Positions 2,925 through 55,674 of a DNA stretch of 64,000 nucleotides are shown here, piece after piece. The notes beneath the pieces were generated by a model. The model worked only from the letters and a program-made list of their open reading frames with translations, did no database searches and was not told the origin of the DNA. Both the position numbers and the translations under genes were made by a program. Within the stretch, counting starts at the first letter, position 1. Every line of letters begins with the position of its first letter. This stretch comes from Candidatus Hydrogenedentota bacterium (lineage in GTDB: Bacteria > Hydrogenedentota > Hydrogenedentia > Hydrogenedentales > SLHB01): NCBI GenBank assembly GCA_963745075.1, contig CAVUWV010000031.1, positions 32,001 to 96,000 on the forward strand, in the 5' to 3' direction.

Positions 2925-3094
2925 AAAGAACATCCCCCTTGATCCCACTTCAAAGGGGGAGTCTTGCGCACCCCAATTCTTGGTGAGATATGTTGTGAAA
3001 TTCTCCGAAACCGGACCGTCGCTCACCCCAAGACGCGACGCGAAGCGTTGCGAACAATTCCCCCTTCGAAGGGGGATCAAGGGGGATGTTCTTT
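2925..3094. repeat. Inverted-repeat doublet, family CCCCCTT (copy 1)
   Basis: AAAGAACATCCCCCTTGATCCCACTTCAAAGGGGGA ... TCCCCCTTCGAAGGGGGATCAAGGGGGATGTTCTTT; 36-bp arms, 2 mismatches. Confidence 0.9.
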
Positions 3095-4227: not shown

Positions 4228-4369
4228 GTCCACAGATTACACAGATTTTCACAGATTGGAGTTCAAAAGAGATTGGGAAGAACGAAACCGCCACCGAAAT
4301 GCTTTTGATCGGCAACGTCCTCTATTTCTCTCTTTCTTGAATCTGTGAAAATCTGTGTAATCTGTGGAC
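4228..4369. repeat. Inverted-repeat doublet, (CACAGAT)x3 family, gene-less
   Basis: Perfect 30-bp IR GTCCACAGATTACACAGATTTTCACAGATT / AATCTGTGAAAATCTGTGTAATCTGTGGAC around an 82-bp spacer. Confidence 0.93.
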
Positions 4370-4384
4370 AAGAAACTCTTCTCT

Positions 4385-5488
4385 CTACGACCCTTGCGTC
4401 AACGCCTTCACGACCCGGTCGCCGAAATCGCTCGTGCTGATGGGTTCGTGACCGCCTTTGGGGTCTTTCAGATCCGCCGTGGTGTAGCCCGCAGCGAAGA
4501 CCGTGCGCATGGCGTCCATGATCTGCTTCGCTTCCTTTTCCAATCCGAAACTCTTCTCCAGCATAAGCGCAACGGATCCAATCATGGAGTACGGATTCGC
4601 AATGCCCTTGCCCGCGATATCCGGCGCGGAACCGTGGGAAGGTTCGTAGTAGCCCTTATCCGGCCCGATACAGGCGGACGGCATCAACCCAAGGGAGCCC
4701 AGCAGACCCCCGGCCAAGTCGCTCAGGATATCGCCGAACATGTTTTCCATAACCATCACGTCGAACTGGCGCGGGTTCAGCACCAGCGCCGTCGCGGCCG
4801 CGTCGACAATGATGTGCTTCACCTTCACGTCGGGGTATTGCCGGCCCACCTCGTCGCCCACCGCGTTCCACAACACGCTGGACATGAGCACGTTGCTCTT
4901 GTGGACGTTGTGAAGGATCTTCTTGCGCTTACGGGCCTCTTCGAAGGCCACGGTCAGAATCTGCCGGATCTCTTCTTCGTTGTATTCGAGCGTCTCCTTG
5001 ACATAGCGCAGGCCGTTGGCGTCCGTACCCTCCTCCTTCTTTCCGAAGTACAAGCCGCCGATGAGTTCCCGGATCATCATGATGTCGATTCCGTCGGCCA
5101 CGATTTCCGGACGTAGCGGCGAGAAGAAAGCCAATTCGGGCGGCAGATACACCGGCCGGAAGTTGGCGAACGTATTGTACCGTTTGCGCATAGGCAGTAG
5201 GGCACCCCGTTCCGGGCGCTCTTCGACGGGAATCCGGCTCGATTCCTCATGACCCAGCCCGATGGGCCCCTTCAGGATGGCGTCCGCGCGGTCGCACGCG
5301 GCCATCGTCTCCGCGGGGAACGAATGGCCGTGATCGAAGTAGGCCTGCGCGCCAAAGGGCGCACGCACCAGTTCGTAGGTCACCCCGGCCGACTGTTCAA
5401 TGACGCGCAGCACCTTGACGGCTTCGGCCGTGATTTCGGGGCCGATTCCATCGCCTTCGAGCACCGCGATAACGTATTTCTTCGACAT
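4385..5488 (-). CDS. leuB: 3-isopropylmalate dehydrogenase
   Basis: [45 protein letters not shown]. Confidence 0.92.
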
Positions 5489-5544
5489 ACCAAGTCCTTC
5501 AAGTCATACGGGCGGACGCCCGAAAGCATCCGCCCGTCGGAAAA

Positions 5545-6060
5545 CACGAAATCCGAAGCACGAAATCCGAAACAAATTCCAATGCTCCAAATTCAAAAAA
5601 GCCCTAGATCAGGCCTAAGTAGAGGTCACCACAAACGCGGGTACACGCCACTGTGCGTACTTCACCTCAAGAACATCCCCCTTGATCCCCCTTCAAAGGG
5701 GGAGTCTCGCAGACCCAAGTTTCGGGTGAGCATAAGGACAAACAGCAAAATCACAGGGCTCTGTCCGTCTCATCCGCCCCGCGAAGCGTGGGCAAGATAA
5801 TCCCCCTTTGAAGCCACGCCGCGGCGTGGGAAGGGTCGAGGGGGATGTTTCGTCTGTTATGTGTACCCTTTCTTGTGGGAAGTCGTACTTATCGTGGCTT
5901 CCTACCATGGCACAACCCAGCATTACAGGGAACGGGCGACGTGACGGACGCGATACATCCACACGTTTTGGTCATTTGAATTTCGGTCATTCGTGCTTGT
6001 TTCGGATTTCGTGCTTCGTGCTTCGAATTTGACTTGAAACGTGCTTCGGATTTCGGATTT
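5545..6060. repeat. Inverted heptamer-repeat doublet (AAATCCG/AAGCACG) enclosing a CCCCCTT element
   Basis: CGAAATCCGAAGCACGAAATCCGAAACAA at ~5547-5575; reverse-complement arm TTGTTTCGGATTTCGTGCTTCG... at ~5997-6060. Confidence 0.85.
5672..5849. repeat. Inverted-repeat doublet, family CCCCCTT (copy 2)
   Basis: AACATCCCCCTTGATCCCCCTTCAAAGGGGGA ... TCCCCCTTTGAAG[CCACGCCGCGGCGTGG]GAAGGGTCGAGGGGGATGTT. Confidence 0.85.
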
Positions 6061-22735: not shown

Positions 22736-22899
22736 TAACATCCCCCTTGATCCCCCTTCAAAGGGGGAATTGCGCTCAATCACGCTAGTTCGTAAAGGGA
22801 CCGCGCTTGGCTCTGAACCTGGGTCATTGCCAGAGCCGGAACGCAACGCGAAGTGTTACGACTTATTCCCCCTTTGAAGGGGGACCAAGGGGGATGTTA
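22736..22899. repeat. Inverted-repeat doublet, family CCCCCTT (copy 3)
   Basis: TAACATCCCCCTTGATCCCCCTTCAAAGGGGGAAT ... ATTCCCCCTTTGAAGGGGGACCAAGGGGGATGTTA. Confidence 0.92.
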
Positions 22900-25179: not shown

Positions 25180-25306
25180 CTCGTGCTCGTAATCGTTATC
25201 GTAATCGAGAGTTGAAACGGTCTGAGTAGAAATCAGAACTTGAGGATCTGAACGAGGGCGCAGCGTCATTGCACGTTGTCGATTACGATTACGAGCACGA
25301 GTACGA
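25180..25306. repeat. Inverted hexamer-repeat doublet (TCGTAA/TTACGA), copy 1
   Basis: CTCGTGCTCGTAATCGTTATCGTAATCGA ... TCGATTACGATTACGAGCACGAGTACGA between pyrB and pyrC. Confidence 0.85.
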
Positions 25307-28476: not shown

Positions 28477-28599
28477 TCGTAGTCGTACTTGTAATCGAAT
28501 ACGCCGCAAAAGGCCAAGAGTAAATAGCGGCCGTTTGGCTCCTTGACGCGAGTTGCACGGTTGGTTCGATTACGATTACGAGCACGATTACGATTACGA
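28477..28599. repeat. Inverted hexamer-repeat doublet, copy 2
   Basis: TCGTAGTCGTACTTGTAATCGAA ... TTCGATTACGATTACGAGCACGATTACGATTACGA between crcB and DUF190. Confidence 0.82.
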
Positions 28600-54064: not shown

Positions 54065-54515
54065 CCGCAGATATACGCAGATGGTCGCAGATGAAGAATG
54101 ATGAAGACAAGAAAAGGGACCCACAGACTTACGCGATAATCGGAGTTGGAATGCAAGTTCATGGGCGATTGGGCTGCGGGTTCCAGGAACCCGCATATCA
54201 GAGCGCATTCGCTGTCGAGTGTCGATTTCAAGGCGTGCCGTGCGAGCGTGAGGTCAAGTACGAGATTACGTACAGAGATGAGATTTTGGACTGTTACTAT
54301 CGCGCGGACTTTGTTTGTTACGGAGCGGTAATCGTCGAGTTGAAGGTCGTTGAGGAATTGACGGATAAGCACCGCAGCCAAGTCATCAATTATCTGAAGG
54401 TATCGGGATTGAAACGCGGAGTTTTGATGAATTTTGCGAACGAGCGTTTGGAATATGAGCGCATCGTGTTGGATTATTCCGATTCTTAATCTGCGAACAT
54501 CTGCGTAATCTGCGG
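54065..54515. mobile_element. GxxExxY gene bracketed by inverted (CGCAGAT)x3 arms
   Basis: CCGCAGATATACGCAGATGGTCGCAGAT(G) ... (TA)ATCTGCGAACATCTGCGTAATCTGCGG; arms overlap the start and stop codons. Confidence 0.7.
54091..54489 (+). CDS. GxxExxY protein (PD-(D/E)xK nuclease superfamily)
   Basis: VH..LG.GFQEPAY, RADF, IVELK, QVINYLK, G.LMNF; lower GC than neighbours. Confidence 0.93.
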   Translation: MKNDEDKKRDPQTYAIIGVGMQVHGRLGCGFQEPAYQSAFAVECRFQGVPCEREVKYEITYRDEILDCYYRADFVCYGAVIVELKVVEELTDKHRSQVINYLKVSGLKRGVLMNFANERLEYERIVLDYSDS

Positions 54516-54531: not shown

Positions 54532-55674
54532 ATGGCGAAGAAGAAGTTGAACGTGGCCATGATTGGCTATGGGTTTATGGCGCGGGCGCATTCGAACGCG
54601 TATCTGAAGGTGAATCATTTCTTCGATCTCGACTATGAGCCGGTGCGGAAGGTGGCCTGTGGCCGGGATGCGGAAAAGGTGAAGGCCTTCGCGGATCAGT
54701 GGGACTATGAGTCCACGGAAACGGACTGGCGCAAGGCGATCGAGCGGAAGGACATCGACGCCGTCGACATCTGTTGTCCCAACAATCTGCACCACGACAT
54801 CGCCATCGCGGCGGCCGAGGCGGGCAAGATGATCCTCTGCGAGAAGCCGCTCGCCATGAACGGCGCGGAAGGCGAGGAAATGTGCAAGGCCGTCGAGAAG
54901 GCCGGTGTGCCGAACACGGTCTGGTACAACTACCGCCGCGTGCCGGCGGTGACGCTGGCCAAGCAACTCATCGACGAAGGCCGGTTGGGCAAGATCTTCC
55001 ACTACCGCGCGGTGTTTCTCCAGGACTGGACGATCTCCGAGGAGCTACCCCAGGGCGGGCAGGGATTGTGGCGATTGGACGCGGCGGCGGCGGGCAGCGG
55101 CGTGACGGGCGATCTTCTCGCGCACTGCATCGACACGGCCCTGTGGTTGAACGGCTCCATCAGCGACGTGACGGCTATGACGGAGACGTTTATCAAGGAA
55201 CGGGTCCACACGGCTACCGGCAAGAAGCAGCCGGTCGGCATCGACGACGCCTGCGCGTTTCTGGCGCGGTTCAAGAACGGGTCGCTGGCGACGTTCGAGT
55301 CAACGCGTTACGCGCGGGGACACAAGGCGCTCTATACCTTCGAGATCAATGGCGAGCACGCGTCGATCCAGTGGGACCTTCACGATTTGCACCGGCTCAA
55401 TTATTTCGATCACCGGGACGATTCGATCGTGCGCGGGTGGCGCTCGGTCCACGTCACGGACGGTGACATGCCATACATGGACAAATGGTGGGTGCCGGGG
55501 CTGCAGATTGGCTACGAACACAGCTTCGTGCATCAGGCCGCCGACTTCCTGGAGAACATCGCGAAGAACAAACCGACGGCGCCGACGTTCCGCGATGCAC
55601 TCGAAACGCAGCACATCTGCGACGCGGTTTTGAAATCAGCCCAATCGGGTTCCTGGGAACAGGTCCCCGCGTAG
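54532..55674 (+). CDS. Gfo/Idh/MocA oxidoreductase
   Basis: IGYGFM, CEKPLA, GDL.AH.ID; GGAGG RBS. Confidence 0.93.

Follow-up and report, generated by a model that had tools for sequence, protein, structure and literature searches.

GxxExxY nuclease genes flanked by inverted triple-heptamer arms: a candidate nuclease-repeat partnership at operon junctions

In the window, the whole 64-kb stretch of Candidatus Hydrogenedentota DNA analysed here, a GxxExxY gene lies between two co-oriented host genes and is bracketed by inverted repeats that touch its start and stop codons. The locus raises the question of what ties such a gene to such repeats. The entire unit spans 451 bp (54065-54515) and separates a xylose-isomerase-like TIM-barrel gene (PF01261; 53001..54053, plus strand) from a Gfo/Idh/MocA oxidoreductase gene (54532..55674, plus strand). 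The left arm (54065..54099, plus strand) begins 12 nt past the upstream stop and comprises three CGCAGAT units, starting at 54066, 54076 and 54086 (periods of 10 and 10 nt), plus GAAGAAT. It contains the ATG (54091-54093) of the GxxExxY gene (54091..54489, plus strand; 132 aa, PF13366/TIGR04256), which shares bases with the third CGCAGAT unit. The right arm (54482..54515, minus strand) holds the inverse of three CGCAGAT units, with starts at 54489, 54499 and 54508 (periods of 10 and 9 nt). It overlaps the TAA (54487-54489) and stops just short of the GGAGG ribosome site of the Gfo gene. A sequence-only reading had described the triple at the ATG, its inverted counterparts at the TAA and a low-GC unit of 451 bp between co-oriented genes, and these features were confirmed: the periods are 9-10 nt and the GC content is 48.8%, as compared to 61.7% in the TIM-barrel gene and 61.4% in the Gfo gene. 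The GC3 of the unit is 58%; that of these neighbours is 83-84%.

The two arms, of 35 and 34 nt, respectively, pair over ~34 nt, interrupted by one gap and two mismatches. When the mRNA is folded in silico, the arms are paired and the start codon faces the stop codon (z -4.1). Double-unit matches numbered five in the window against 0.10 expected by chance. Between the arms, no DDE, HUH or serine transposase was found, GxxExxY being the only ORF there. No target duplication was visible beside 54065-54515, a site that is old and for which a close empty allele was not found. An Rfam search of the window returned nothing but one tRNA gene (RF00005; 94-166, minus strand).

The 132-aa protein matched a sole family, PF13366 (E 3.6e-35, 121 bits; cut-off 22), with a TIGR04256 GxxExxY match of E 1.6e-37 (128 bits; cut-off 35). 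Its closest named relatives, at 84-85%, occur in Candidatus Hydrogenedentota records, and the family was found in 36 of 41 related genomes. Among 62 aligned homologues, E33, D73, K85, Q97, Y101 and F115 are invariant, and E83 is present in at least 90%. A structure model (pLDDT 92.6) superimposed best on Cas4 SSO0001 (4ic1; Foldseek E 8e-5, Z 8.5, rmsd 2.7 over 97 aligned residues), followed by restriction-type, lambda-exonuclease and AddAB nuclease domains. The assignment of GxxExxY to the PD-(D/E)xK superfamily thus stands, with a Cas4-like fold and the E...D...ExK...QxxxY residues retained. Judged from these residues and the modelled fold, the protein is very likely an active PD-(D/E)xK nuclease. 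Comparison with two same-genus orthologues gave a dN of 0.09 and a dS of 2.0 or saturated, values that indicate purifying selection. A single-sequence query of viral contigs gave no confirmed relative. Among the sequencing runs listed, the best matches were six DNA runs with 5-7% of the sampled words; none exceeded 7% and none of those listed was an RNA run.

We then asked whether other GxxExxY genes carry arms, an enrichment set as a check on the sequence-only reading. Loci were pooled from the 41 related genomes (part of the matches listed; 31 further matches lie beyond the list), 80 loci from other phyla and the Gfo loci described below. The 221 loci gave 192 with 194 full-length genes, of which 189 were distinct and 183 had both flanks. 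An arm was defined as one of six word types with at most two mismatches over three units. By this criterion, 152 of the 183 homologues (83%) had an arm on at least one side and 94 (51%) on both; the detector found none at the remaining 31. Among random genes of the source genome (G000), the corresponding numbers were 3 and 0 of 300, and among shuffled flanks 1 and 0 of 183. As the six words were defined after viewing the flanks, the weight rests on these controls rather than on the raw share. Of the two-sided loci, 87 of 94 carried the identical word type on both sides. Fifty-one of the 94 pairs pointed inward and 17 outward, the gene in the latter lying between doublets; 26 were scored as having the same direction. 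In two loci (L168 of G012 and L231 of G031), two tandem GxxExxY genes had arms between them, which suggests arm-mediated duplication. The possibility that the arms are coding repeats was rejected, as their 8-11-nt spacing breaks the frame in most loci.

The arm words follow the protein. On a quick maximum-likelihood tree (117 columns, 155 labelled proteins, many open forks), the word changed 28 times, as compared to 91.5 times with shuffled labels, and none of 200 shuffles was as low. The clades mix phyla: proteins of the CRCAGAT type occur in Acidobacteriota, Chloroflexota, Planctomycetota, Pseudomonadota and others. In 68 of 100 cases, the arm word could be predicted from protein neighbours in other genomes. 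Such clustering reflects, on the sequence comparison, the co-inheritance of gene and word, and does not by itself demonstrate recognition. The two arms of one locus were also more alike than same-type arms elsewhere, in their units (19.2 vs 17.5 of 21), their spacers (0.73 vs 0.35 of 2) and their outer bases (3.7 vs 2.4 of 5); none of 2000 permutations of the 59 pairs, which include a few near-copies, was as high.

The junction upstream of the Gfo gene provided a view of the unit's history. Of 47 matches in 61 genomes, 30 Gfo-orthologue loci were examined. A GxxExxY gene lay directly upstream of Gfo in nine (one cut by a contig end), and a TIM-barrel gene adjoined Gfo in eight with neither gene nor arms; the upstream context of the other 13 was different or unknown. 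The empty orthologous sites sought as a check therefore exist. In the Gfo tree, seven filled loci grouped together, with the empty L119 nested among them as the sister of the filled L118, and the remaining two filled loci were placed elsewhere; the junction is filled across several families. In L112, L115, L116 and L117, the GxxExxY alleles are 48-52% identical and the Gfo genes 83-89%. More generally, the junction neighbours of divergent GxxExxY alleles are 81-89% identical. A further allele, in L120, is 31% identical and has arms of the CGCAAAG type. In G005, of the same genus, an intact left arm and a decayed right arm surround unrelated REP-like repeats. Taken together, these comparisons indicate that the arms are a lasting socket with exchanged content, and that the cargo does not follow its neighbours.

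In G002 (L365), the position orthologous to another arm site of the source genome is occupied by a doublet and, after it, a broken GxxExxY gene. At four further sites compared with their orthologues, the arms proved to be shared, to have decayed or to be missing, and no clean empty allele with a readable junction emerged. Upstream of Gfo in other lineages (L121, L136 and L141), we observed other small accessory genes or remnants, which by eye we take to be HEPN-like and nucleotidyltransferase-like. The presence of these other genes makes the site a general hot spot.

Gene-less arms are found in the window as well. The sister doublet at 4228-4369, reported by the sequence-only reading as three CACAGAT units in a perfect 30-bp inverted repeat without a gene, was borne out: arm 1 (4228..4257, plus strand) and arm 2 (4340..4369, minus strand) flank an 82-nt spacer (4258..4339). 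Folded as single-stranded DNA, the doublet forms a hairpin (z -9.2). Its second arm starts ~16 nt past the stop of an isopropylmalate-dehydrogenase-family gene (4385-5488, minus strand). In three same-genus genomes, an arm likewise follows the dehydrogenase stop, a decayed inverse arm precedes the next gene and 250-350 nt of other repeats lie between the two. The sister is thus an old socket, of which both arms are perfect only in the source genome. A fresh insertion was rejected, the site being old and shared by same-genus genomes. An origin by deletion of a gene was rejected as well, for no GxxExxY remnant was detected in the 82-nt spacer. Of 106 gene-less regions, only L402 had a GxxExxY-like stretch within a doublet, and its match is weak (tblastn E 4.5e-4, the best of many queries; profile E 0.31). 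In this doublet (L402:425-566, of G102), the spacer can be read on from the arm, without a break in frame, into a GxxExxY-like motif; the stretch is possibly a deletion remnant, statistically too weak to count as proof of deletion.

Several unrelated repeat families gather at gene junctions in the source genome. Within the window, one junction (5542-6060) has outer inverted arms of GAAATCC/CGAAGCA-type units around a CCCCCTT...AAGGGGG palindromic pair. Inverted doublets of the CCCCCTTGATCCCCCTTCAAAGGGGGA type, with arms of 35-46 nt and no gene, occur at 2925-3094 and 22736-22899, and six-base TCGTAA/TCGTGC units form inverted doublets at 25181-25306 and 28477-28587.

The source genome (6.8 Mb, 89.7% complete) contains one GxxExxY gene and many more arms. 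With at most two mismatches, 34 triple arms were found, as compared to none in two shuffles. With at most one mismatch, there were 36 arms of CRCMGAT, 9 of CRCGGAT and 15 of CRCGAAD, and 0 or 1 in a shuffled genome; triples of CRCRGAG, CRCAAAG, ACAKGAT and CACTAAW were absent at this threshold. The commonest word, with 36 arms, is that of the genome's only GxxExxY gene. No gene of the CRCGAAD or CRCGGAT type was found in this 89.7% complete assembly despite the 15 and 9 arms. Five inverted pairs at most 600 bp apart, one of them the GxxExxY unit, were formed by the 36 CRCMGAT arms, a count that would miss decayed partners; pairs are more numerous in other genomes. Many of the arms stand alone or lie in tandem mosaics. 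Four single arms folded no better than shuffles (z 0 to +1.9) and are not palindromes. Scored on crude gene calls, the outer end lay no more than 60 nt from a gene end in 15 of 60 arms, 11 of which followed a stop and 4 preceded a start, and the inner end did so in one; three arms lay inside a called ORF and 42 had no called end that close.

To relate arm abundance to the cognate gene, we counted exact triples away from the GxxExxY genes in the 41 relatives, assigning gene types from the protein alone. Five or more ACADGAT arms occurred in 6 of 12 genomes with that gene type and in 1 of 29 without it (Fisher p 0.001). For CRCMGAT, the same threshold was reached in 9 of 15 genomes with the gene and 9 of 26 without (Fisher p 0.19, rank test p 0.02), one of the latter having a gene cut by a contig end. 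Neither CRCVGAG (5 of 16 vs 4 of 25 genomes with and without the gene) nor CRCHAAG (3 of 17 vs 0 of 24) gave a significant difference. Five genomes with no intact gene among the loci examined (G009, G010, G024, G033 and G036) had 0-6 arms of the four types. In these abundance tests, as in those on Methylococcales below, kin are not independent data points.

Among Methylococcales, 10 of 71 genomes had the gene at E 1e-25. Their median arm number, which includes gene-side arms, was 6, as compared to 2 in genomes without the gene (p 0.0025), and at least 10 arms were present in 3 of 10 and 6 of 61 genomes, respectively (p 0.11). Rechecking five arm-rich gene-less genomes gave one divergent match and four with none. 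G102 and G075, the main contigs of which span nearly the whole genome, had 76 and 20 arm matches (controls 20 and 2) and no PF13366 match, and two Methylococcales drafts with 93 and 17 arm matches had no PF13366 match either. Judged from such genomes, arms can persist after the gene is lost or spread by other means. Overall, a dependence of arm abundance on the gene was found for ACADGAT and weakly for CRCMGAT, and not for CRCVGAG or CRCHAAG; the arm-rich gene-less Methylococcales are counter-examples.

In some relatives the arms have multiplied. G008 has 42 family matches and 14 near-full-length copies of a 580-bp unit that are 83-94% identical to the query copy and lie at unrelated sites; the dozens of unit copies (L248-L297) include frameshifted ones and internal deletion derivatives of 155-350 bp. 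In addition to the inner arms, these copies have an outer inverted repeat and flanking 6-8-bp duplications. The mean longest word shared by their flanks was 4.75, as compared to 3.41 when permuted (0 of 5000 as high; 20 rows, one copy counted twice). The outer repeat also occurs 33 times in G017, on MITEs without arms. For its partner transposase we guessed PF13612, which we take to represent IS982; it was absent from five genomes, and two viral matches were uninformative. The G008 burst was rejected as proof of GxxExxY transposition, as the copies have target duplications at an outer repeat that bounds the arm-free G017 MITEs as well. In G032, outer ends were likewise seen on ten 169-bp doublets, seven of which show by eye a 5-bp duplication; they belong to a ~195-bp MITE family (L320-L329) whose members have CCTARAA ends, 5-bp duplications and an internal CGCAGAT arm doublet. 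The doublets of G039, G014 and G028 have varied spacers and no such outer ends. Inverted doublets fold as hairpins in G014, G028, G032 and G039 too. Because arms lie inside outer repeats with target duplications in G008 and G032, other enzymes can spread them; conventional MITE machinery can amplify arms or the whole unit, and neither burst is evidence of transposition by GxxExxY.

The observed anatomy, the enrichment, the match of word and protein clade, the intact catalytic residues, the purifying selection and the change of cargo at one junction are best accounted for, with a probability of roughly 0.55, by a GxxExxY nuclease with its own arms as recognition and cutting sites, host repair then swapping the content and copying the arms. 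According to this explanation, the arm would be the substrate, cutting would drive exchange and the host would supply the repair. More specifically, the protein would recognise cognate triple-heptamer arms and cut beside or between them. By analogy with Ssn/NTS and RAYT/REP, its likeliest substrate would be single-stranded DNA or the 30-35-bp stem of two arms; alternatively, it could be double-stranded DNA in which the three units, about one helical turn apart, act as repeated binding sites. Host recombinational repair would exchange DNA between arms and would occasionally copy arms to new gene junctions. By the same analogy, the partnership is best read as REP/NTS-like, of a socket-and-cartridge kind, unlike a transposon that inserts with target duplications. 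Under any mechanism, operons probably tolerate the unit because it lies between a stop codon and a ribosome site and its gene is folded out of the message. More tentatively, at odds clearly below even, GxxExxY may be a large family of minimal site-specific PD-(D/E)xK nucleases with clade-specific arms, homing-like cartridge exchange at operon junctions and the capacity to seed their own dispersed repeats. Such a family would amount to a REP-like replicator with a Cas4/RecB-type enzyme at its core and would offer many natural pairs of enzyme and target.

The co-variation of gene and word could arise from co-inheritance alone. It would do so if arms were spread by MITE or IS transposases, slippage or recombination and GxxExxY were a passenger with an unrelated job, such as defence. 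The arm-rich genomes without the gene point in this direction, as do the MITE-like ends with 5-8-bp duplications that carry arms, the gathering of unrelated repeat families at gene junctions of the source genome and the weak genome-wide dependence for three of the four words. We nevertheless consider a passenger role unlikely: it leaves unexplained why the same 7-base word flanks 40-55%-identical proteins in different phyla, and why such arms are almost absent at other genes (3 of 300). We think it less likely still that the arms act at the RNA level, an intervening-sequence-like autoregulation in which their pairing within the operon transcript would loop out the gene, mask its start codon and place the upstream stop close to the ribosome site downstream, leaving a harmless, self-repressed insert whose protein binds or cuts the stem. 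Such a stem requires no clade-specific three-unit word, most arms of the source genome are unpaired, the nearest folds are DNases and the exchange of cargo happens in DNA. These points outweigh, in our estimate, the predicted mRNA fold that pairs the arms with the ATG facing the TAA (z -4.1), the count of 15 in 60 arms whose outer end is close to a gene end (at most 60 nt), as compared to one whose inner end is, and the maintained pairing between the two arms of a locus. Tolerance at the RNA level is also compatible with cutting at the arms and does not exclude it.

Least probable, and in our view very unlikely, is an autonomous miniature transposon in which GxxExxY would be the transposase, the arms its terminal inverted repeats, each containing three sites for it, and the doublets its MITEs. 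The inverted ends, in which subterminal units recur, the patchy occurrence of the unit at orthologous sites and the 14 near-full-length 580-bp copies in G008 would all suit a transposon; the lack of a visible target duplication beside 54065-54515, the single copy in the source genome, the purifying selection and a junction filled across several families would not. Moreover, the G008 copies are bounded by a second, outer repeat, flanked by 6-8-bp duplications, and this repeat also bounds the arm-free G017 MITEs; we also know of no strand-transfer chemistry in a lone 132-aa nuclease. Conversely, the G008 and G032 families are themselves MITEs or passenger-carrying IS derivatives, which carry arms or the whole unit; the native unit differs from these in having neither outer terminal repeats nor visible target duplications.

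The nuclease that cuts at its own arms, if substantiated, would be of some consequence. GxxExxY is a very common gene without an assigned function, and the arms offer a concrete candidate substrate for each clade, which makes the family testable with oligonucleotides. The explanation would also account for a type of intergenic repeat that is abundant in environmental bacteria yet undescribed, and would provide a source of 130-aa sequence-specific nucleases.

The arrangement is real and widespread and apparently undescribed in print. No description of GxxExxY arms was found in the literature covered, to which subscription papers and supplements may add. The 132-aa protein belongs fully to PDDEXK_3/GxxExxY (PF13366), a family for which PMC3424549, as far as available, gives many transfers and no known function and describes no flanking repeats. 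The TAACTGA heptamer repeats of PMC4679880 were set aside as a different repeat, that account, as far as available, mentioning no nuclease. The closest solved folds are those of Cas4, RecB and lambda exonuclease (4ic1, 4r5q), and GxxExxY keeps their E...D...ExK...QxxxY residues. GxxExxY differs from these enzymes in its 16-20% identity, its much smaller size and a locus without a CRISPR link, and a shared fold shows no function.

The sequence-only reading had proposed a REPIN-like system, a proposal that is supported in part. Of the three findings that it had named as refuting, a lack of arm enrichment and a lack of empty orthologous sites were contradicted by the data, and independence of doublet abundance from the gene drew a mixed answer. 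In favour of a REPIN-like system, the gene is flanked by its own repeat type and the doublets form hairpins; against it, the arms are not palindromes, only 5 inverted pairs occur among 36 arms, near-complete genomes contain 20-76 arms and no such gene, the sister is old and the G008 and G032 families carry another element's ends. As portrayed in the parts of PMC3116915 and PMC3733652 available, REP/REPIN-RAYT and TIRtron-TIRYT systems resemble the present one in having a low-copy enzyme gene flanked by its own repeat type, which lies either between the two members of an inverted pair or with a doublet on each side; mosaic arrays and hairpin-forming inverted doublets without a gene are likewise common to them. 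In contrast to GxxExxY, RAYT and TIRYT are HUH Y1 transposases; REPs are palindromes, unlike single GxxExxY arms, and REPINs are mostly doublets, whereas the arms of the source genome are mostly single or in tandem.

Ssn nucleases cut single-stranded DNA at flanking repeats (Chenal et al. 2025, PMC11893778, the main text of which does not mention GxxExxY). As presented there, the Ssn/NTS/SRM system is similar in that a small single-domain nuclease, the function of which used to be unknown, has cognate repeats on its flanks; these repeats occur elsewhere in the genome as well and differ according to the protein. The frequency of flanking is comparable: 71% on one side and 42% on both for Ssn, and 83% and 51% for GxxExxY. 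By the same account, Ssn is a GIY-YIG enzyme of proven activity and NTS a self-contained hairpin, whereas GxxExxY has a PD-(D/E)xK fold and predicted cleavage, and its arm, a row of three direct heptamers, needs a second arm to pair with. The best reading, by analogy, is that the closest kind is an Ssn/NTS- or RAYT/REP-like nuclease-repeat partnership on a PD-(D/E)xK enzyme, one that falls outside both systems in enzyme fold and repeat anatomy. If the enzyme cuts its arms, PD-(D/E)xK would be the third nuclease fold, after HUH RAYT and GIY-YIG Ssn, partnered with dispersed repeats.
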